A DNA stretch of 45,051 bases from Vectrevirus T145P2: sequence record OZ035747.1; one strand, given 5' to 3'. The notes beneath the pieces are model-generated. The model did not search any database, had not been told where the DNA came from, and saw only the letters and a program-made list of their open reading frames with translations. The stretch's first letter is position 1; every line of letters begins with the position of its first letter. Of this stretch, positions 2,681 to 43,931 are shown piece after piece. A program made the translations under genes and the position numbers.

Positions 2681-2819
2681 AAGCCCAGATAATAAGATAA
2701 ATAATAGGTAATATATAGGTTAACCTAGGTTATATAGGTATACCTTAGTATGGGTGTACTCCTGTACACCCTATTCCTTACTACCTTACTATATTTACAT
2801 AATAGGAGAGAGAGAGACA

Positions 2820-3098
2820 ATGGCTAATGATTATAGTAGTCAACCATTAACAGGTAAGTCTAAGCGAAAGCAGGTACAACCTGTAAGTGAAGCACTAATG
2901 CTTCCGGTACTCAAAAAAGAGGAAGTTAGTAAGAAAAGCAATGTTATTAATGATGCCACCAAATCAGGTAAACAGAAAGGGGCCATGGTGTGCCTTGAAG
3001 TGGAAGGTGGTGTATTGAAGATTGCTATCGCGGTTGATGGCAAAGAAGATTCAGAGTGGAAGTTAGTAACAGTGGAACCAGCTGTTAACCCAGTTTAA
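2820..3098 (+). CDS. hypothetical protein, paralog A of a tandem pair
   Basis: ATG 2820; 92 aa; shares SGKQKGAMV.LE...IA.A...W motif with next gene. Confidence 0.6.
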   Translation: MANDYSSQPLTGKSKRKQVQPVSEALMLPVLKKEEVSKKSNVINDATKSGKQKGAMVCLEVEGGVLKIAIAVDGKEDSEWKLVTVEPAVNPV

Positions 3099-3116: not shown

Positions 3117-3410
3117 ATGGCTAAATATGGTACTACAGGTTCTGTTACTGGTCAGGCTTTTCGAGTAAAAGCAGTACAAACTATTGCAACGGCAATCCCG
3201 ATGCCTGTTGTTAAAGAAGCAGACCTTAAGAGTAAAGATCACCCTATCAACATCAAACATTTATCAGGTAAACAGAAAGGTGCAATGGTTGCTCTTGAGA
3301 AAAGTGACACAACCTTACATATTGCTGTTGCACGTGGTAGTGAACCAACAGACCCTTGGGATGTAACTGGCATGGAATCGCTCGCTGTCACTCCAGCAGG
3401 TGGAGAATAA
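3117..3410 (+). CDS. hypothetical protein, paralog B of a tandem pair
   Basis: AAGGAGG then ATG 3117; 97 aa; clear similarity to 2820..3098. Confidence 0.65.
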   Translation: MAKYGTTGSVTGQAFRVKAVQTIATAIPMPVVKEADLKSKDHPINIKHLSGKQKGAMVALEKSDTTLHIAVARGSEPTDPWDVTGMESLAVTPAGGE

Positions 3411-3754
3411 TGCTTAACAAATACTTCAAGCGCCGTGAGTTCGCTTGCCGTTGTGGGTGCGGTACATCCACTGTTGATGCTGAATTACTACAAGTAGTCA
3501 CAGATGTGCGTGAGCACTTTGGTTCTCCTGTAGTTATCACTTCTGGGCACCGCTGTGCTAAGCACAATGCTAATGTAGGAGGAGCTAAGAACTCCATGCA
3601 TCTTACTGGTAAGGCTGCTGACATTAAAGTTACTGGTATTGGGCCAATGGAGGTTCGTGCATACCTGTGCAATAAATACCCAGATAAATATGGTATTGGT
3701 GCTTATCCTACTTTCACTCATATTGATGTGAGGGATAATAAAGCACGATGGTAA
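3410..3754 (+). CDS. peptidase M15-family zinc peptidase, probable endolysin
   Basis: ATG 3410 overlapping previous stop; 114 aa; FACRCGCG, SGHRCAKHN, MHLTGKAADI and THID motifs characteristic of LAS/M15 peptidases. Confidence 0.78.
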   Translation: MLNKYFKRREFACRCGCGTSTVDAELLQVVTDVREHFGSPVVITSGHRCAKHNANVGGAKNSMHLTGKAADIKVTGIGPMEVRAYLCNKYPDKYGIGAYPTFTHIDVRDNKARW

Positions 3755-34462: not shown

Positions 34463-36864
34463 TGGAAGTACAAGGTTCATTAGGTAGACAAATCCAAGGG
34501 ATTAGCCAGCAGCCGCCAGCGGTACGCTTGGATGGTCAGTGCACAGCTATGGTTAATATGATACCTGATGTAGTGAATGGTACTCAATCACGCATGGGTA
34601 CAACTCATATTGCAAAGATACTTGATGCGGGGACTGATGACATGGCCACTCATCATTATCGCAGAGGTGATGGTGATGAAGAGTATTTCTTCACGTTGAA
34701 GAAAGGACAAGTTCCTGAGATATTTGATAAGTATGGGCGCAAATGTAATGTGACTTCACAAGATGCACCTATGACCTACCTCTCTGAGGTTGTTAATCCA
34801 AGGGAAGATGTGCAATTCATGACGATAGCTGATGTTACTTTCATGCTTAATCGTAGGAAAGTAGTTAAAGCTAGTAACAGGAAGTCACCTAAAGTTGGAA
34901 ACAAAGCCATTGTGTTTTGTGCGTATGGTCAATATGGTACATCTTATTCCATTGTAATTAATGGGACCAACGCTGCTAGTTTTAAAACACCGGATGGTGG
35001 AAGTGCAGACCATGTTGAACAAATTCGAACTGAACGTATCACTTCTGAATTGTACGCTAAGTTGCAGCAATGGAGCGGTGTGAGTGACTATGAAATACAA
35101 AGAGACGGTACTAGTATATTTATCGAGAGACGGGATGGTGCTAGCTTTACAATAACAACCACCGATGGTGCAAAAGGTAAGGATTTAGTGGCTATCAAGA
35201 ATAAAGTTAGCTCTACTGACCTACTCCCTTCTCGTGCGCCTGCTGGTTATAAAGTGCAAGTGTGGCCTACTGGCAGCAAACCTGAGTCTCGTTACTGGCT
35301 GCAAGCTGAGCCTAAAGAGGGAAACCTTGTGTCTTGGAAAGAAACAATAGCTGCTGATGTATTACTTGGGTTTGATAAAGGCACAATGCCTTACATTATT
35401 GAACGTACAGGTATCATCGACGGCATAGCTCAATTCAAGATAAGACAAGGTGATTGGGAAGATCGTAAAGTAGGTGATGACTTGACTAACCCTATGCCTT
35501 CTTTTATTGATGAGGAAGTACCCCAGACAATAGGTGGAATGTTCATGGTGCAGAACCGCCTATGCTTTACAGCAGGTGAAGCGGTTATTGCTTCTCGTAC
35601 ATCATACTTCTTCGATTTCTTTCGTTATACGGTTATCTCTGCATTGGCAACTGACCCATTTGATATTTTCTCAGATGCTAGTGAAGTCTACCAGCTAAAA
35701 CATGCAGTGACCTTAGATGGCGCTACCGTGTTGTTCTCTGATAAGTCACAATTCATACTGCCAGGCGATAAGCCTTTAGAGAAGTCAAATGCACTGCTTA
35801 AGCCTGTTACAACATTTGAAGTGAACAATAAGGTGAAGCCAGTAGTAACTGGTGAATCGGTAATGTTTGCCACTAATGATGGTTCTTACTCTGGTGTACG
35901 AGAGTTCTATACAGACTCTTATAGTGACACTAAGAAGGCACAAGCAATCACAAGTCATGTGAATAAGCTTATCGAAGGTAACATTATCAACATGGCAGCA
36001 AGTACCAATGTCAACCGATTGCTTGTCACTACCGATAAATATCGTAACATAATTTACTGCTATGATTGGTTATGGCAAGGTACAGACCGTGTACAATCAG
36101 CATGGCATGTATGGGAGTGGCCTATGGGTACAAAGGTGCGAGGTATGTTTTATTCTGGTGAATTACTTTATCTACTCCTTGAGCGAGGCGATGGCGTCTA
36201 TCTGGAGAAGATGGACATGGGTGATGCACTAACCTATGGTTTGAATGACCGCATCAGAATGGATAGGCAAGCAGAGTTGATCTTCAAGCATTTTAAAGCA
36301 GAAGATGAATGGATATCTGAACCACTTCCTTGGACTCCTACTAACCCAGAACTTTTGGATTGCATCTTAATAGAAGGGTGGGATTCATATATTGGAGGTT
36401 CTTTCCTGTTCAAATATAACCCTAGTGATAACACCTTGTCTACAACCTTTGACATGCATGATGATAACCACGTAAAAGCGAAGGTTATTGTTGGTCAGAT
36501 TTACCCTCAAGAGTTTGAACCAACACCTGTAGTTATCAGAGATAGGCAAGACCGTGTATCCTATATTGATGTACCTGTTGTGGGGTTGGTTCACCTTAAT
36601 CTTGATATGTATCCTGATTTCTCCGTGGAAGTTAAGAATGTGAAGAGTGGTAAAGTACGCAGGGTGCTAGCGTCAAACCGTATAGGTGGTGCTCTCAACA
36701 ACACAGTAGGTTATGTTGAACCAAGGGAGGGTGTCTTCAGATTCCCACTGAGGGCTAAGAGCACGGATGCTGTTTATCGTATTATTGTAGAATCACCTCA
36801 TACATTCCAGCTTCGCGATATTGAGTGGGAAGGGAGCTACAATCCAACCAAAAGGAGGGTCTAA
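34462..36864 (+). CDS. tail tubular protein B (gp12-like)
   Basis: GGGAGGA then ATG 34462; 800 aa; N-terminal GISQQPP as in T7 gp12. Confidence 0.93.
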   Translation: MEVQGSLGRQIQGISQQPPAVRLDGQCTAMVNMIPDVVNGTQSRMGTTHIAKILDAGTDDMATHHYRRGDGDEEYFFTLKKGQVPEIFDKYGRKCNVTSQDAPMTYLSEVVNPREDVQFMTIADVTFMLNRRKVVKASNRKSPKVGNKAIVFCAYGQYGTSYSIVINGTNAASFKTPDGGSADHVEQIRTERITSELYAKLQQWSGVSDYEIQRDGTSIFIERRDGASFTITTTDGAKGKDLVAIKNKVSSTDLLPSRAPAGYKVQVWPTGSKPESRYWLQAEPKEGNLVSWKETIAADVLLGFDKGTMPYIIERTGIIDGIAQFKIRQGDWEDRKVGDDLTNPMPSFIDEEVPQTIGGMFMVQNRLCFTAGEAVIASRTSYFFDFFRYTVISALATDPFDIFSDASEVYQLKHAVTLDGATVLFSDKSQFILPGDKPLEKSNALLKPVTTFEVNNKVKPVVTGESVMFATNDGSYSGVREFYTDSYSDTKKAQAITSHVNKLIEGNIINMAASTNVNRLLVTTDKYRNIIYCYDWLWQGTDRVQSAWHVWEWPMGTKVRGMFYSGELLYLLLERGDGVYLEKMDMGDALTYGLNDRIRMDRQAELIFKHFKAEDEWISEPLPWTPTNPELLDCILIEGWDSYIGGSFLFKYNPSDNTLSTTFDMHDDNHVKAKVIVGQIYPQEFEPTPVVIRDRQDRVSYIDVPVVGLVHLNLDMYPDFSVEVKNVKSGKVRRVLASNRIGGALNNTVGYVEPREGVFRFPLRAKSTDAVYRIIVESPHTFQLRDIEWEGSYNPTKRRV

Positions 36865-37610
36865 TGGCTATAGGTTCAGCCGTTATGGCTGGTATGTCTT
36901 CTATTGGTAGTATGTTTGCAGGTAGCGGTGCAGCAGCCGCTGCTGGTGGTACTGCCGCAGCAGCAGGAGGGACAGCCGCCGCAGGTGGCGGAGGTTTGCT
37001 TGGCTCCCTTGGTAGTTTCTTAGGAGGTTCTTCTGCTGGCTTCTCTAATGCAGGACTGCTTAGTGCAGGTATGCAAGGTCTTGGTCTTCTAGGCAATCTT
37101 TTTGGTGGAAGTGATGAAGCCAAAGCTATGAAGAAAGCTCAGGAGGAGCAATGGCGGCAGCAGTTAATTGCTACACAAGAAGCATATAAGACAGTGGCAG
37201 ATGCAGAACGCTCTGCTGCTAAACAGTATCATGCGGATGCAATAAGCAATCAGGCTTCACTACTGCAGCAGAGAGCACAGGTTGCATTGCTTGCTGGTGC
37301 TACTGGTACTGGTGGTAGCTCTGTGTCTTCTATGCTGAATGACTTAGCAGCAGAAGGCGGAAGGAACCAGAGTACAATTATCGATAACTATGAGAATCAG
37401 AAGATTAACTTCACAAACCAGCTTAAGTCCATCCAACGTGGTGGTCAGATGCAGATGCGTGAGTTTAAGAAACCTTCTGCCGTGAGCACCTTGGTGCAAG
37501 GTATACCGAGTCTGGCATCTGCCTATGTAACAGGTAGTAAGTCCGGCATGGCTTTAGGTAAAGCTTTAACTGATTCTCGTACCTATTCATCTGGAACAAG
37601 AGGTATTTAA
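36864..37610 (+). CDS. internal virion protein A (Gly/Ala-rich N-terminus)
   Basis: AAAGGAGGG then ATG 36864; 248 aa. Confidence 0.75.
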   Translation: MAIGSAVMAGMSSIGSMFAGSGAAAAAGGTAAAAGGTAAAGGGGLLGSLGSFLGGSSAGFSNAGLLSAGMQGLGLLGNLFGGSDEAKAMKKAQEEQWRQQLIATQEAYKTVADAERSAAKQYHADAISNQASLLQQRAQVALLAGATGTGGSSVSSMLNDLAAEGGRNQSTIIDNYENQKINFTNQLKSIQRGGQMQMREFKKPSAVSTLVQGIPSLASAYVTGSKSGMALGKALTDSRTYSSGTRGI

Positions 37611-40558
37611 TGGCAATTGAGCGACAAGCAGTACAAGGTCTGCCACAAGTGCAGGCCACTTCTCCTAATGTCATGACCTTTGCACCTCAGCGAGTTGGAG
37701 GTGTGGAGGCTGGCGTAGCTTCTACCTCCGGTAGTCGATTTATCGAAGACCTTATTCGAGCAGCCAGTAGTGTAGCTGATGTAACCACTGGTATCCTTAA
37801 TCAAAAGATTGAGGAAGATAAGGTTGTTCAAATGGAACGGGCATATAACGGATTAATGCCTTCTGAGGATGCAACTCGTGGTGGCGCTCGTGCTAACATG
37901 CTTGTCAAAGCTCAACTGCTAGCTAATGATGAAGCAGCACGAATGAAAGACATGGCTACTCGTTTCCAAGGAACGGATGACGAGTGGACACAGCTTATGG
38001 TTGACTCTCGTAATGAGATGCAGAATAAGCTGTTCCAGCAATACCCTGAGTTGCAAGGTGACAAAGATACTATGCGTATGGTCACTAATGTCTTCCAAGA
38101 ACAGCAGCCTCAGATTTGGGCTACACGAACCCAGCATAAACTTGACCGTGAACAAGCAGACCGTGAGGATACCTTTGACGGGCGAGTGGCTTCTACTTGG
38201 GATTCTAATATTGACCCTGAAGCCTCTGGATATGCTTTACAGGAACGGATCCGCGAAGGTCTTACTCAAGGATTACTACCTGAACAGATGCACAAGAAGT
38301 TAGTCCAGCGAGCAATTTCACTTGCACAAGGCGGTGATGTTAGCATGGCTGAAGCCCTGAAGTATGTGAAGGACGATAAGGGTGTTTCTGTTTATGCTAA
38401 GAATCCACAGCTTATCACAGCCATCACTAGTGGTAATGCAGTTTGGGCTAGGAATAATGTAGCTGATGTAACTCGTATGTCTTTCGAAGTTAAAGAATCA
38501 TACCTTGCAGGCGATTTAACTGATGAAGAATTGTTGGAACGAGCACAGCACATTAATAATCTGACAGGTAACTCTGTCTTCTCTAACCCAGAACTAGAGG
38601 CACTGATGCGCCAACGAGCTAAGCAGAATGCAGAGCTAGGTGCAATGCAGGATATGCGCCGTGAGCTTTACTCCGACCGCCTGACTGGCTTCCAAGGTAA
38701 GACTGATAAAGAGAAGAAGGCTTACATTGATGTTATCAAACAAGATAGCCAACTTTATGCAGACCAGCAAATCAAACAACGTGGCTTGGACCCTTACAGT
38801 CAAGAGGCTGAAGCTATTCGTGGTGCAGTGGAAGTGCAGCGCCTACAATTCATGAACTCCAAAGGCTTAGTGGATGATACCTTTGAGTCTCGTATCAAAG
38901 CCATGGAATCTATGCTATCGCCTGAGCACTTTGCCAAGGGCGAACCACAAGAGTTGATGACTATTCGCCAGTTGTGGGAACAGTTGCCAGAAGAGAGCCG
39001 AGGTGTCTTTGGTGACACGGTGAATGGCTACATGGATAACTACAACACTGCACTACAAATGGGGGAGACACCTTTGCAGGCTGCAAGGTTTGCGCGTAAA
39101 GCACAGCAGAAATTCTCTCGTACTGAGAAGGAAACCAAGAAGTTCAACTCAGCTATTGGAGATGCACTGGATGAGGTATCTGGTGCTGGCTGGTTTGATG
39201 GTAAAACCGAAGTGTCAGACTTAGGTAAAGCTATTGCGGAAGAAGAGTTACGAGCTAAGGCCAATATGTTGTGGTCTAGTGGTATGCGTAACATGGATTC
39301 CATCAAGAAGGCTTTAATTACTTGGGGCAATAAACGCTACACTCAATCAGAGGATGCAAAGACTTCCGGTGGCTATTTCATTAAAGGTGATTACACTTCT
39401 GCATCTGATATGCTTATGTCAGTTGGGAAAGGCGTAAACCCTACCGATGTACCTCTGGCGCTTGGTAGGTATGTAGAAACACAGATGCCAGAATTGAAGA
39501 AGGAGCTTCAAGAGGGGGAAACTAAAGATGATATATACATTGATTACAATGAACAGAAAGGTACTTTCGTGATTCGTGCTGGTGCAGCAGGTCGCCCTCT
39601 TTCTGGGGTAATCCCTGTAACCTCTTTAGATACCACTTCACTACTAGATTCTGCCTACCAGAAGAAAGTAGAGGAACGAGATAAAGGCGAGTATGTTCAC
39701 CCGTATCGTACAGGTATTGGTGCACAAGAGCCTATGCCAGCTAAACCAACTGCCAAAGATATTGGTAAATTTGGACTAGCTAACTTCCTCATGTCTTCTG
39801 CTTTTGCTTCTGGTGAGAATCTGCCTTCTAACTTCGAGATTAACTATCGAGGTAATATGCAACAATTCTATGACAAGCTAGCTATGGATGAGAATAAAGA
39901 TAAAGTTGGCTTTAATAAGGCAACTGGAACCTTTACTCCATATAAAGACGCTCACGGTGAGTCTATCGGTTACGGTCATTTCTTAACGGAAGAAGAGAAG
40001 CGAAACGGGTATATTAAGATTGGCGATGAACTAGTTCCCTATCGAGGGTCTATGTCTCAGCTTACAGAGAGCAAGGCTCGCGCTCTTATGGAGCAAGATG
40101 CTAAGAAGCATGTGCCTCCTACTCGTGACTGGAAGATTCCGTTTGACCAGATGCATCCTGCACAGCAACGTGGCTTAATGGATTTAACCTACAATTTAGG
40201 TAAAGGTGGAATCCAGAACTCACCGCGTGCTCTTGCTGCATTCAAAGCTGGTAAGCTTACGGAGGGTTTTATCGAAATGCTGGGCACTGCATCAAGTGAA
40301 GGTAAGCGTATTCCTGGCCTACTGAAGCGACGCGCTGAGGCATACAATATGGCATCTGCTGGTGGTGTGCCTAAGATTACCGAAGTGGAGACTCGTGAAG
40401 ATGGCTCCATGTGGGTTAGGTTTGGTGGACCTATGCCAGCAGGTTCTGTCTCGGCATGGACTCATAAACGTATTGGCGCGGATGGCTGGTATCAGGTTTA
40501 TGAGGCTGCACCTACAAAGTTAGCTAAAGGTTCTAAGGTAGGTAAAGTTAAGTTGTAG
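37610..40558 (+). CDS. internal virion protein B with C-terminal lysozyme-like (GH24-type) domain
   Basis: 982 aa; HGESIGYGHF ... LMDLTYNLGKGG near 39900-40380 resembles phage lysozyme motifs. Confidence 0.85.
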   Translation: MAIERQAVQGLPQVQATSPNVMTFAPQRVGGVEAGVASTSGSRFIEDLIRAASSVADVTTGILNQKIEEDKVVQMERAYNGLMPSEDATRGGARANMLVKAQLLANDEAARMKDMATRFQGTDDEWTQLMVDSRNEMQNKLFQQYPELQGDKDTMRMVTNVFQEQQPQIWATRTQHKLDREQADREDTFDGRVASTWDSNIDPEASGYALQERIREGLTQGLLPEQMHKKLVQRAISLAQGGDVSMAEALKYVKDDKGVSVYAKNPQLITAITSGNAVWARNNVADVTRMSFEVKESYLAGDLTDEELLERAQHINNLTGNSVFSNPELEALMRQRAKQNAELGAMQDMRRELYSDRLTGFQGKTDKEKKAYIDVIKQDSQLYADQQIKQRGLDPYSQEAEAIRGAVEVQRLQFMNSKGLVDDTFESRIKAMESMLSPEHFAKGEPQELMTIRQLWEQLPEESRGVFGDTVNGYMDNYNTALQMGETPLQAARFARKAQQKFSRTEKETKKFNSAIGDALDEVSGAGWFDGKTEVSDLGKAIAEEELRAKANMLWSSGMRNMDSIKKALITWGNKRYTQSEDAKTSGGYFIKGDYTSASDMLMSVGKGVNPTDVPLALGRYVETQMPELKKELQEGETKDDIYIDYNEQKGTFVIRAGAAGRPLSGVIPVTSLDTTSLLDSAYQKKVEERDKGEYVHPYRTGIGAQEPMPAKPTAKDIGKFGLANFLMSSAFASGENLPSNFEINYRGNMQQFYDKLAMDENKDKVGFNKATGTFTPYKDAHGESIGYGHFLTEEEKRNGYIKIGDELVPYRGSMSQLTESKARALMEQDAKKHVPPTRDWKIPFDQMHPAQQRGLMDLTYNLGKGGIQNSPRALAAFKAGKLTEGFIEMLGTASSEGKRIPGLLKRRAEAYNMASAGGVPKITEVETREDGSMWVRFGGPMPAGSVSAWTHKRIGADGWYQVYEAAPTKLAKGSKVGKVKL

Positions 40559-40622: not shown

Positions 40623-43600
40623 ATGGAACAAGACATTAAGACGAATTGGGCTGGATATGTCCAGTCTACTCCTGAGCCGTTTTCTATTGAGGCGGCTCCG
40701 GTATCGGCTCCTACGATACGCCAGCGTAATGAGTTACAAGAGCAAGTTCTTGAAGCTAAAGCTGACGCTGATATTTTAGGTGCTGTAGGTGCTGCCTTCC
40801 AGAATGAGTGGTTGGCATTCGGAGGCAAGCGGTGGTATGACCGTGCCACTGCTGATTTCACACCTCAACCAGACTTTGAGATACAACCTGAGCAACGTGA
40901 AGCACTACGTTTCAAATATGGTACGGATATGATGCAGACAATCACTGAGGGTGTTCGTTCTGAGGATGAATTGAACTTCCGTATTCAGAATGCTGATGAA
41001 GACCTTGAGCGCAATAAGCGCATTGCTCAGGCTGGCTGGGTTGGCTCTGTGGCGACGATTGGCGCTGCTGTGCTTGACCCTGTGGGATGGGTTGCCTCTA
41101 TTCCAACCGGTGGTGCCGCTAAAGTTGGGCTCGTAGGCCGTGCTGTGCGTGGCGCTATCGCCGCTGGCGTGAGTAATGCCGCTATTGAATCCGTATTGGT
41201 CCAAGGTGACATGACTCGTGATTTGGATGACATTATGGTAGCACTAGGTTCCGGTATGGCGATGGGTGGCGTTATTGGCGCTGTAGCGCGTGGTAGGGCC
41301 ACTAAGCTCAGTGAGCAAGGGGATGACAGGGCTGCGAGCATTGTGCGCAGTGCAGACGCAGGGGACCGCTATGTGCGTGCTGTTGCTGATGATAGTATCG
41401 GTGCGATGCGTGTTAAGGGTGAAGAGGTACTCACGGAGGGTGCATTTGATGTCTCTAGCAAAGGTGAAGATTTGCTGAAAACCCTACAGCGGGAAGGTAA
41501 TGCAATTGATATGACCCCTCGCCGCTGGGCCGGAACTCTGTCTGCCCTTGGTACTGTCGTACATTCCTCTCAGGATGCAAGTGTACGCGGCCTTGGTGCT
41601 CGCCTGTTTGAGTCCCCCCAAGGCTTAGGTATGCAGAAGGCATCTGCTAGTCTCATGCAGAATACTAACTTGAACCGTCTGAAATCTGCTGATATGAACC
41701 GTTTCAATGACGGGTTTGACTTATGGCTCAAAGAAAATAATATCAATCCAGTTTCAGGCCATACTAACTCTCACTATGTGCAGCAATATAATGAGAAGGT
41801 ATGGGAAGCTGTACGCATCGGTATGGATGAGTCTACGCCTAAGTCTATCCGTATGGCAGCAGAGGGGCAGCAAGCTATGTATCGTGAAGCATTAGCATTA
41901 CGTCAACGCTCTGGTGAAGCTGGGTTTGAAAAGGTTAAAGCAGATGATAAGTACATGCCTGATATTTTTGACAGTATGAAGGCTCGTCGTCAATTCAGTA
42001 TGCACGATAAAGAGGACATCATTGAGTTATTCTCTCGTGCATACCAGAATGGTTCTCGTAAGGTTCCAAAGGAAGTGGCTGATGATATTGCACGAGCACA
42101 AGTAAACCGCGTTGCTGATGCCACCTTGACCGGACAGCTTAGCTTTGAAAAGGCTATGTCTGGTCAAACCAAAGCAGAATATGAAGCACTCATGCGCAAA
42201 GCAGGCTTTAGTGATGAAGAGATTGAAAAGATGGTAGAAGCTCTGGATAATAAAGAAACCAGAGATAATATCTCTAACCGAGCTAAGATGAGTTTAGGCT
42301 TAGATGTTACTCAAGAGTACAATGGTATTCGTATTCGTGACTTTATGAACACTAACGTGGAAGAGTTAACAGATAACTACATGAAGGAAGCGGCAGGTGG
42401 TGCTGCCTTGGCTCGTCAAGGTTTCTCTACCTATCAGGCTGCACTTAATGCAATTGATCTTGTAGAGCGAAATGCACGAAATGCAGCTAAAGATACAAAA
42501 GCACACGCACAATTTGAAGCGGAGTCGGCTAAGATCCGTCAATCAGAGCCTGATTACAAGAAGGCACAAGAGAAGATTGAAGAGTTAAAGAAGCGACTTA
42601 AATTGAAAGAGAAAGATGAAGCAGCAGGTCTGGCTATTGATGAAGAAATCCGTCAGATGCGAGAGGGGCTTCGCTTGATTATGGGTAAATCTATCGATTC
42701 AAACCCACAAGATTTGTCTACTAAAATGCTGCGTCGTGGGCGTGACATTACAGGCGTACTTCGCTTAGGTCAGATGGGCTTCGCACAGCTAGGTGAACTT
42801 GCTAACTTCATGGGTGAGTTTGGTATTGCTGCCACCACTATGGCTTTAGGTAAGCAATTCCGCTTCACCTCTAAGGCGTTGCGTAATGGCGATGGCTTCT
42901 TTCGAGATAAGAATTTAGCTGAGGTTGAGCGAATGGTAGGTTACATTGGTGAAGACAACTGGCTAACAACTAAGGGTGCGCGTCCAGATGAGTTTGGTGA
43001 TGTAACCACAGTGCGAGGTATGATGGCCCATTTTGACCAGTCCATGAACTCTATACGACGTGCTCAGACAAACCTATCCCTCTTCCGCATGGCACAGGGT
43101 TCTCTGGAGCGAATGACCAATAGGCAAATAGCTTTGTCTTTCATTGACCACCTTGAAGGCAAGAAGATTATTCCTCAGAAGAAACTGGAGGAACTTGGTC
43201 TTACTCAGGAGTTCATGACTAACCTACAGAAGCACTATGATGCTAACTCTAAAGGTTCTGGCTTGCTTGGCTTTGATACAATGCCTTATGACATGGGTGA
43301 AACTTTAGCTAATGCTATTCGTCGTAAGTCAGGTCTAATTATCCAACGTAACTTCATTGGTGATGAAGGTATCTGGATGAACAAAGCACTAGGTAAGACA
43401 TTTGCACAGCTTAAGTCGTTCTCTCTTGTATCTGGTGAGAAGCAATTTGGTCGAGGGATTCGCCACGATAAAATTGGTCTTGCTAAGAAGACAGCTTACG
43501 GTTTTGCTTTGGGTTCAATAGTGTATGCGGCAAAAGCCTATGTGAACTCTATTGGTCGAGAAGACCAAGATGAATATTTGGAAGAGAAGTTATCGCCTAA

Positions 43601-43931
43601 AGGGTTGGCCTTTGGTGCAATGGGTATGATGAGTACAACTGCTGTATTTAGTCTAGGTGGAGATTTCTTAGGTGGCCTAGGTGTTCTACCTTCTGAGTTA
43701 GTACAATCCCGTTATGAGGCTGGCTTTCAGACTAAGGGTTTGATAGACCAAATACCACTAGTAGGTGTTGGTCAAGATGCATATCGTTTAGCAGATTCTA
43801 TAACTAGATACGCAGAGGGTGATACAGAAGGTGTAGATGTGGCACGTAGGGCTTTACGCTTAGTGCCTCTAGCTAATGTAATAGGAATCCAGAACGCATT
43901 GCGTTATGGCTTAGATGAACTGGAGGATTAA
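40623..43931 (+). CDS. internal virion protein C (gp16-like, 1102 aa)
   Basis: Size and position; GGAGG upstream. Confidence 0.85.
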   Translation: MEQDIKTNWAGYVQSTPEPFSIEAAPVSAPTIRQRNELQEQVLEAKADADILGAVGAAFQNEWLAFGGKRWYDRATADFTPQPDFEIQPEQREALRFKYGTDMMQTITEGVRSEDELNFRIQNADEDLERNKRIAQAGWVGSVATIGAAVLDPVGWVASIPTGGAAKVGLVGRAVRGAIAAGVSNAAIESVLVQGDMTRDLDDIMVALGSGMAMGGVIGAVARGRATKLSEQGDDRAASIVRSADAGDRYVRAVADDSIGAMRVKGEEVLTEGAFDVSSKGEDLLKTLQREGNAIDMTPRRWAGTLSALGTVVHSSQDASVRGLGARLFESPQGLGMQKASASLMQNTNLNRLKSADMNRFNDGFDLWLKENNINPVSGHTNSHYVQQYNEKVWEAVRIGMDESTPKSIRMAAEGQQAMYREALALRQRSGEAGFEKVKADDKYMPDIFDSMKARRQFSMHDKEDIIELFSRAYQNGSRKVPKEVADDIARAQVNRVADATLTGQLSFEKAMSGQTKAEYEALMRKAGFSDEEIEKMVEALDNKETRDNISNRAKMSLGLDVTQEYNGIRIRDFMNTNVEELTDNYMKEAAGGAALARQGFSTYQAALNAIDLVERNARNAAKDTKAHAQFEAESAKIRQSEPDYKKAQEKIEELKKRLKLKEKDEAAGLAIDEEIRQMREGLRLIMGKSIDSNPQDLSTKMLRRGRDITGVLRLGQMGFAQLGELANFMGEFGIAATTMALGKQFRFTSKALRNGDGFFRDKNLAEVERMVGYIGEDNWLTTKGARPDEFGDVTTVRGMMAHFDQSMNSIRRAQTNLSLFRMAQGSLERMTNRQIALSFIDHLEGKKIIPQKKLEELGLTQEFMTNLQKHYDANSKGSGLLGFDTMPYDMGETLANAIRRKSGLIIQRNFIGDEGIWMNKALGKTFAQLKSFSLVSGEKQFGRGIRHDKIGLAKKTAYGFALGSIVYAAKAYVNSIGREDQDEYLEEKLSPKGLAFGAMGMMSTTAVFSLGGDFLGGLGVLPSELVQSRYEAGFQTKGLIDQIPLVGVGQDAYRLADSITRYAEGDTEGVDVARRALRLVPLANVIGIQNALRYGLDELED

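Follow-up and report, generated by a model that had tools for sequence, protein, structure and literature searches.

Podovirus ejectosomes need a murein-cutting activity, and the ejection protein that carries it differs by lineage: an SLT domain is found at the N-terminus of gp16 in T7, and a GH24 domain at the C-terminus of the protein in the gp15 position in the SP6, K1-5, and phiKMV lineages. The movement of the muralytic domain between ejection proteins has been described previously (PMC8954989; bioRxiv 10.64898/2026.05.18.726046), and the lysozyme activity borne by gp16 in T7 has been placed on gp35 in K1E and K1-5 (PMC8954989). In a survey of 205 Autographivirales genomes, a muralytic domain was assigned to an ejection protein in 127 and was N-terminal on gp16 in 86 of these, C-terminal on the tunnel protein in 31, and central in 10; in the same work, cryo-EM of a phiKMV-like phage shows its gp15-like tunnel protein to carry a lysozyme domain (bioRxiv 10.64898/2026.05.18.726046). 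Table 2 of PMC5380687 includes "K1-5 Gp38 YP_654136.1, 109 kDa, Lysozyme" and "SP6 Gp36" among the virion-associated lysins, citing Moak and Molineux (2004), and gives the activity type of both without its mark for experimental confirmation; its entry for SP6 gp36 names an internal head protein that has lysozyme activity. The muralytic activity of SP6 and K1-5 virions is credited in PMC5380687 and PMC8954989 to Moak and Molineux (2004), and, going by the table, a zymogram of virions appears to have been done already. The C-terminus of SP6 gp36 has also been described as similar to lysozymes, and an M15_3 protein that is present in K1E and K1-5 as well has been suggested to be the endolysin (PMC4837284).

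The window analyzed here is a stretch of 45,051 nt from Vectrevirus T145P2 (OZ035747.1). A megablast search using the open reading frame at 37610..40558 as a query matched 64 GenBank phage records with a query coverage of at least 80% each, 53 of them at an identity of at least 95%, and the matched records are named Vectrevirus or Escherichia phage. Gene 35 of K1-5 is 98.7% identical to this open reading frame at the nucleotide level, and the encoded protein is identical to K1-5 YP_654136.1 at 977 of 982 aa. Two of the five substitutions with respect to K1-5, T860S and G974D, lie in the C-terminal region, and none of the five affects a catalytic position proposed below. The product of K1-5 gene 35 and K1E gp35 are, in essence, the same 982-aa protein as that of the window, and the gene order is shared. 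Given the near-identity to K1-5 gene 35, we read the window from its sequence as a circularly permuted genome of a K1-5/K1E-like coliphage (Vectrevirus; Autographiviridae, Molineuxvirinae). The RefSeq annotation of K1-5 gene 35 (YP_654136.1), which lies between "internal virion protein" and gene 36, is "lysozyme domain-containing protein," and PHROG 4290, which carries the same description, covers the 982-aa protein end to end. The sequence-only reading, which proposed a lysozyme-like domain on an ejected protein of this phage, was right, and the virion lysozyme of K1-5-like phages is already known, annotated, and published; the gain for the window is a correct annotation together with the residue candidates E761, D780, and S785 for mutagenesis. 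The genes of the ejection-protein region are as follows.

36825..37610, plus strand: gp14-family internal virion protein of 261 aa (outer-membrane component of the ejectosome), immediately upstream of the gene 35 homologue (PF24072 T7_gp14, E = 2.2e-32).
37610..40558, plus strand: gene 35 homologue, an ejection (internal virion) protein of 982 aa that bears a lysozyme domain in its C-terminal part (open reading frame list, K1-5 identity, PHROG 4290).
40623..43931, plus strand: gp16-like internal virion protein of 1102 aa, downstream, without an N-terminal SLT domain (PHROG 342, BLASTP to T7 gp16).

Both of the phage lysozyme-type motifs that had first drawn attention to the 982-aa protein are present in the translation of the open reading frame at 37610..40558, HGESIGYGHF at aa 782-791 (nt 39953-39982) and NLGKGG at aa 862-867 (nt 40193-40210). 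The Pfam model PF00959 (Phage_lysozyme, GH24) matches aa 776-910 with an E value of 2.2e-10 and 41.4 bits, and the C-terminal fragment alone scores 43.8 bits, against a gathering score of 22.3 bits. A single-sequence phmmer search of PDB matched T4 lysozyme weakly (E = 5.6e-4). The C-terminal region was found by tblastn in 173 phage records, mostly podoviruses related to K1-5 and SP6, that include Escherichia, Klebsiella, Salmonella, Proteus, Erwinia, Pectobacterium, and Vibrio phages, among others, and a word-indexed search in which the C-terminal 273 aa were compared with a large protein database returned three matches, a number too small to support a good model of the structure. From the tblastn matches we built a family profile of nine homologues from Escherichia, Salmonella, Proteus, Klebsiella, Pectobacterium, Erwinia, and Vibrio phages that are 32-64% identical to the window protein, and this profile matched T4 lysozyme chains in PDB with an E value of about 1e-7 over T4 lysozyme residues 17-135. 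The local hhalign probability to T4 lysozyme is 89.8%, and a global alignment reaches the N-terminal helix of T4 lysozyme. At the level of sequence, the similarity of the 982-aa protein to lysozymes is confirmed as real and far above chance. An AlphaFold model of aa 710-982 (273 residues, from a four-sequence alignment) has a mean pLDDT of 67.6, with values below 50 around the hairpin, and the best PDB matches of this low-confidence model in Foldseek are mostly T4 lysozyme, its fusions, and T4 gp5 at non-significant scores (best E = 0.026, TM at most 0.48).

The domain had been placed at 39900-40380 and at the C-terminus of the protein. A GH24 domain does lie there, but it begins upstream of 39900, at approximately aa 750 (nt 39857), with the helix that contains E761, and it occupies the C-terminal quarter of the protein rather than its very end, which is formed by a conserved tail (aa 918-982). 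We delimit the following features within the gene.

39857..40354, plus strand: predicted GH24 (T4-lysozyme-type) muralytic domain, approximately aa 750-915 (PF00959, profile against PDB, hhalign).
39890..39892, plus strand: E761, putative catalytic Glu equivalent to T4 lysozyme E11 (family invariance, global hhalign).
39947..39964, plus strand: D780 to S785 in the YKDAHGES beta-hairpin, putatively matching D20 and T26 of T4 lysozyme, with the IGYGH motif after them (phmmer, hmmsearch, hhalign).
40361..40555, plus strand: C-terminal tail of approximately 65 aa (aa 918-982), predicted to be beta-rich, after the lysozyme domain (conserved in all aligned family members).

The catalytic domain is homologous to T4 lysozyme (gpe) and to the lysozyme domain carried by T4 gp5, and equivalents of the T4 lysozyme residues E11, D20, and T26 can be proposed in the window protein. 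Its identity to T4 lysozyme is about 23%, it has Ser in place of T26, and 10 additional residues are inserted between the helix of the Glu and the beta-hairpin. Like the window protein, T4 gp5 is a virion-borne entry lysozyme; the domain of the window is fused to an internal ejection protein, whereas the T4 versions are free or on the tail spike. D780 aligns with T4 lysozyme D20 and S785 with T26. Across the family, the Asp is kept or, in distant members, shifted into a "DSD" motif, and the position equivalent to T26 is S, T, or N, with Asn in one aligned member. Owing to the 10-residue insertion, neither the local alignments to T4 lysozyme nor those to the Pfam profile reach back to the catalytic Glu, and the assignment of this residue is therefore based on family invariance and on a global hhalign alignment in which T4 lysozyme residues 1-12 (MNIFEMLRIDEG) are paired with QQFYDKLAMDEN and E11 falls on E761, where local confidence is low. 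The Glu-Asn ("EN") dipeptide at E761-N762 is invariant in all nine family sequences, down to 32% identity. From these alignments, we propose with moderate confidence that E761 is the equivalent of the catalytic Glu.

Hydrolase and transglycosylase chemistry are inseparable by sequence alone, and a domain with a lysozyme fold could act as a lytic transglycosylase that leaves 1,6-anhydro-muramyl ends, which would make it functionally identical to the N-terminal domain of T7 gp16. Lysozyme-like folds include transglycosylases, for example R of phage lambda, and a single T26H change makes T4 lysozyme a transglycosidase; the unmarked activity type of the K1-5 protein in Table 2 of PMC5380687 also leaves room for this chemistry. 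However, the best matches of the domain are GH24 hydrolases (T4 lysozyme) and not SLT domains, and the family retains the Glu/Asp/Ser-Thr triad characteristic of hydrolysis by the T4-type mechanism, so that we regard transglycosylase chemistry as unlikely.

The divergence of the domain, the 10-aa insertion next to the catalytic helix, the Asn at the T26 position in one member, and the low confidence of the structure model would fit a catalytically inactive relic that the periplasmic tunnel retains as a module for structure or for binding peptidoglycan. It is also in line with such a loss that the muralytic domain of T7 is needed only with highly cross-linked peptidoglycan and is dispensable in standard laboratory conditions (PMC8954989). 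On the other hand, across genera and at 32-64% identity to the window protein, E761 never varies and the Asp is conserved. The C-terminal domain of phiKMV gp36, which is analogous, is an active lysozyme. An activity of approximately 4800 U/mg for that domain is cited in PMC5380687, and for SP6 and K1-5 virions the reviews assign the muralytic activity to this protein (PMC8954989; PMC5380687). We consider an inactive relic very unlikely and the domain most probably an active hydrolase.

The gene for the 982-aa protein lies between those for the gp14-family protein and the gp16 homologue, which is the position of gp15, the periplasmic tunnel protein (internal virion protein C). A BLASTP search using the N-terminal 737 aa against T7 gp15 revealed no detectable similarity (best E = 0.83), and these 737 aa have no Pfam match; T7 gp15 is likewise without a Pfam family. 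Homologues of internal virion protein C are described in the literature as having diverged beyond recognition and are assigned by synteny. Synteny, size, and published assignments are our grounds for equating the 982-aa protein with gp15. Its earlier designation as internal virion protein B holds insofar as it is an internal virion protein; "B" is gp14, and the protein sits at the position of internal virion protein C, a difference of naming only.

A similar arrangement is seen in SP6 and in phiKMV-like phages. SP6 gp36 (numbered 35 in AY370673) is approximately 63% identical to the window protein over the C-terminal 273 aa, matches PF00959 with 37.7 bits, and shares the EN...YKDAHG.S.GYGH motifs, the 10-aa insertion, and the C-terminal tail; SP6 differs in its host and in the size of its gp16 homologue, which is 1270 aa compared with 1102 aa in the window. 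In phiKMV gp36 (gp36C) and Ar-KM gp42, as in the window, an ejection protein of approximately 900 aa in the gp15 position carries a T4-lysozyme-like domain near its C-terminus (aa 740-881 in Ar-KM gp42) and lies between gp14-like and gp16-like proteins. Among these analogous proteins, only the phiKMV-like gp42 has a cryo-EM structure. Between phiKMV gp36 and the window protein, BLASTP detects only the 15-residue YKDA.G.S.G.GH motif, at the equivalent position, and phiKMV gp36 has no Pfam score at an E value of 0.01 or less. Unlike the window protein, it has the canonical 9-residue spacing between Glu and Asp and lacks a long beta-rich tail.

In T7, the SLT domain (PF01464) occupies aa 15-127 of gp16 (E = 1.7e-31). 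In the 1102-aa gp16 homologue of the window, the match to PHROG 342 begins only at profile position 162 of 1235, and in a BLASTP comparison of this homologue with T7 gp16 its aa 89-574 align with 275-794 and its aa 922-1048 with 1100-1253; a Pfam search at an E value of 1 or less found neither an SLT nor a lysozyme match in it. The suggestion that an ejected protein of this phage bears a lysozyme domain where T7 instead has a transglycosylase at the gp16 N-terminus is thus borne out. With no SLT domain on the gp16 homologue and a GH24 domain on the 982-aa protein, the muralytic function would reside on the gp15-position protein instead of gp16. The role is the same as that of the T7 SLT domain, a muralytic domain that rides on an ejected core protein and clears a way through the murein for the DNA conduit, but the fold family (GH24 versus SLT/GH23-type), the carrier, and the terminus at which the domain is attached all differ.

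We conclude, with a probability of roughly 90%, that the GH24 domain (approximately aa 750-915) on the gp15-position ejection protein is a virion-associated lysin for entry. The 982-aa protein would be packed into the internal capsid core and, by analogy with T7 and phiKMV-like phages, would be ejected after the gp14-like protein to form the part of the trans-envelope DNA conduit that spans the periplasm. The lysozyme domains of the protein, placed at the cell wall by the same analogy and facing outward, would then cut glycan strands locally, with E761 as the putative general acid and D780 and S785 positioning the water. Such local cutting of the murein would give the tunnel and the gp16-like protein access to the inner membrane, and the GH24 domain would in this way replace the SLT domain that T7 has at the gp16 N-terminus. 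Lysis at exit would be left to a separate M15 peptidase, acting with the holin and the spanin.

That a separate M15 peptidase endolysin accompanies the ejected lysozyme had also been claimed, and the corresponding gene is present in the window.

3410..3754, plus strand: Peptidase M15_3 endolysin of 114 aa from the ATG, exit-stage cell-wall hydrolase (PF08291, E = 1e-32).

The likely true start of the endolysin is the ATG at 3410, which has GGAG in front of it; the protein translated from there aligns with YP_654144.1, the "endolysin" of K1-5. The open reading frame at 2754..3098 was considered as the counterpart of the K1-5 RefSeq "endolysin" and rejected, as the translation leads to the M15 gene at 3410..3754. 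Since the dedicated endolysin is a small M15 peptidase that a glycosidase would complement chemically, the lysozyme domain might be thought to act mainly at exit, as a second endolysin supplied by unassembled protein. The domain is, however, fused to a 109-kDa protein whose gene is flanked by those of the gp14 and gp16 homologues in the operon for ejection proteins, and in K1-5 the holin, the M15 endolysin, and the spanin are annotated as a lysis cassette of their own. Published models, moreover, put such domains at the height of the cell wall in the ejectosome (bioRxiv 10.64898/2026.05.18.726046). A main role at exit is extremely unlikely on this evidence, and we retain the assignment of the GH24 domain to entry and of the M15 peptidase to exit.

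The tail at aa 918-982, like the N-terminal 737 aa, has no Pfam match. Within the 273-residue model its region has block-mean pLDDT values of approximately 79-92, and when modelled alone (mean pLDDT 73) it gave no significant fold match in PDB, with every E value at 3 or above. Together with the 10-residue insertion, the tail appears to be specific to the SP6/K1-5 lineage (Molineuxvirinae) and to be absent from phiKMV gp36 and T4 lysozyme. Tentatively, and at rather long odds, the tail and the insertion might constitute an undescribed regulatory or docking module, which could silence the encapsidated enzyme or tether it to the murein or the gp16-like protein.

Two stretches of the 982-aa internal virion protein (encoded on the plus strand at 37610-40558), which carries a T4-lysozyme-type domain, have no counterpart in phiKMV gp36, its analogue with a C-terminal T4-lysozyme-like domain:

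39896-39934 (aa 763-775), a 10-residue insertion between the putative catalytic-Glu helix and the first beta-hairpin
40361-40555 (aa 918-982), a conserved tail of ~65 residues C-terminal to the lysozyme domain

The insertion is also absent from T4 lysozyme, and because of it the putative catalytic glutamate (E761, paired with E11 of T4 lysozyme) was missed by local alignments and by the Pfam match. The tail is predicted to be beta-rich and is kept in the aligned homologues from SP6 and from Proteus, Klebsiella, Pectobacterium, Erwinia, and Vibrio phages. A Pfam search of this tail gave no match, and a PDB fold search with it returned nothing significant.

Two further proteins of the window differ in length from their K1-5 annotations:

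36825-37610, ORF of the gp14-family protein, 261 aa from a GTG as given by the ORF lister
40623-43931, gp16 homologue, 1102 aa (K1-5 counterpart NC_008152 31062-34247)

The gp14-family protein is annotated as about 240 aa in both K1-5 and K1E, compared with the 261 aa of the window ORF. Its true start probably lies downstream of the GTG, where it would directly adjoin the tail tube B stop codon. The gp16 homologue has the same length as that given for K1E gp36 (1102 aa), whereas the RefSeq K1-5 gene is annotated as 3186 nt (1061 aa), suggesting that another start codon was chosen in the K1-5 record.

Other genes lie elsewhere in the window:

2754-3098, small ORF 5' of the endolysin (K1-5 counterpart region NC_008152 37756-38343)
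4371-5870 and 5924-8389, two adjacent tailspike genes

No Pfam domain was found in the small ORF. Small proteins at this position are labelled "acetyl-CoA acetyltransferase" in the K1-5 RefSeq record, as is the phage protein family PHROG 2725. The two K1-5 proteins are about 92-96 aa, far below the size of that enzyme, and the label is therefore probably a propagated misannotation. One tailspike, of the K5-lyase type, has a pectate-lyase-like beta-helix, and the other is a complete endosialidase with a chaperone domain (End_beta_propel, E = 2e-223), the same arrangement as that described for the dual K5/K1 specificity of K1-5.
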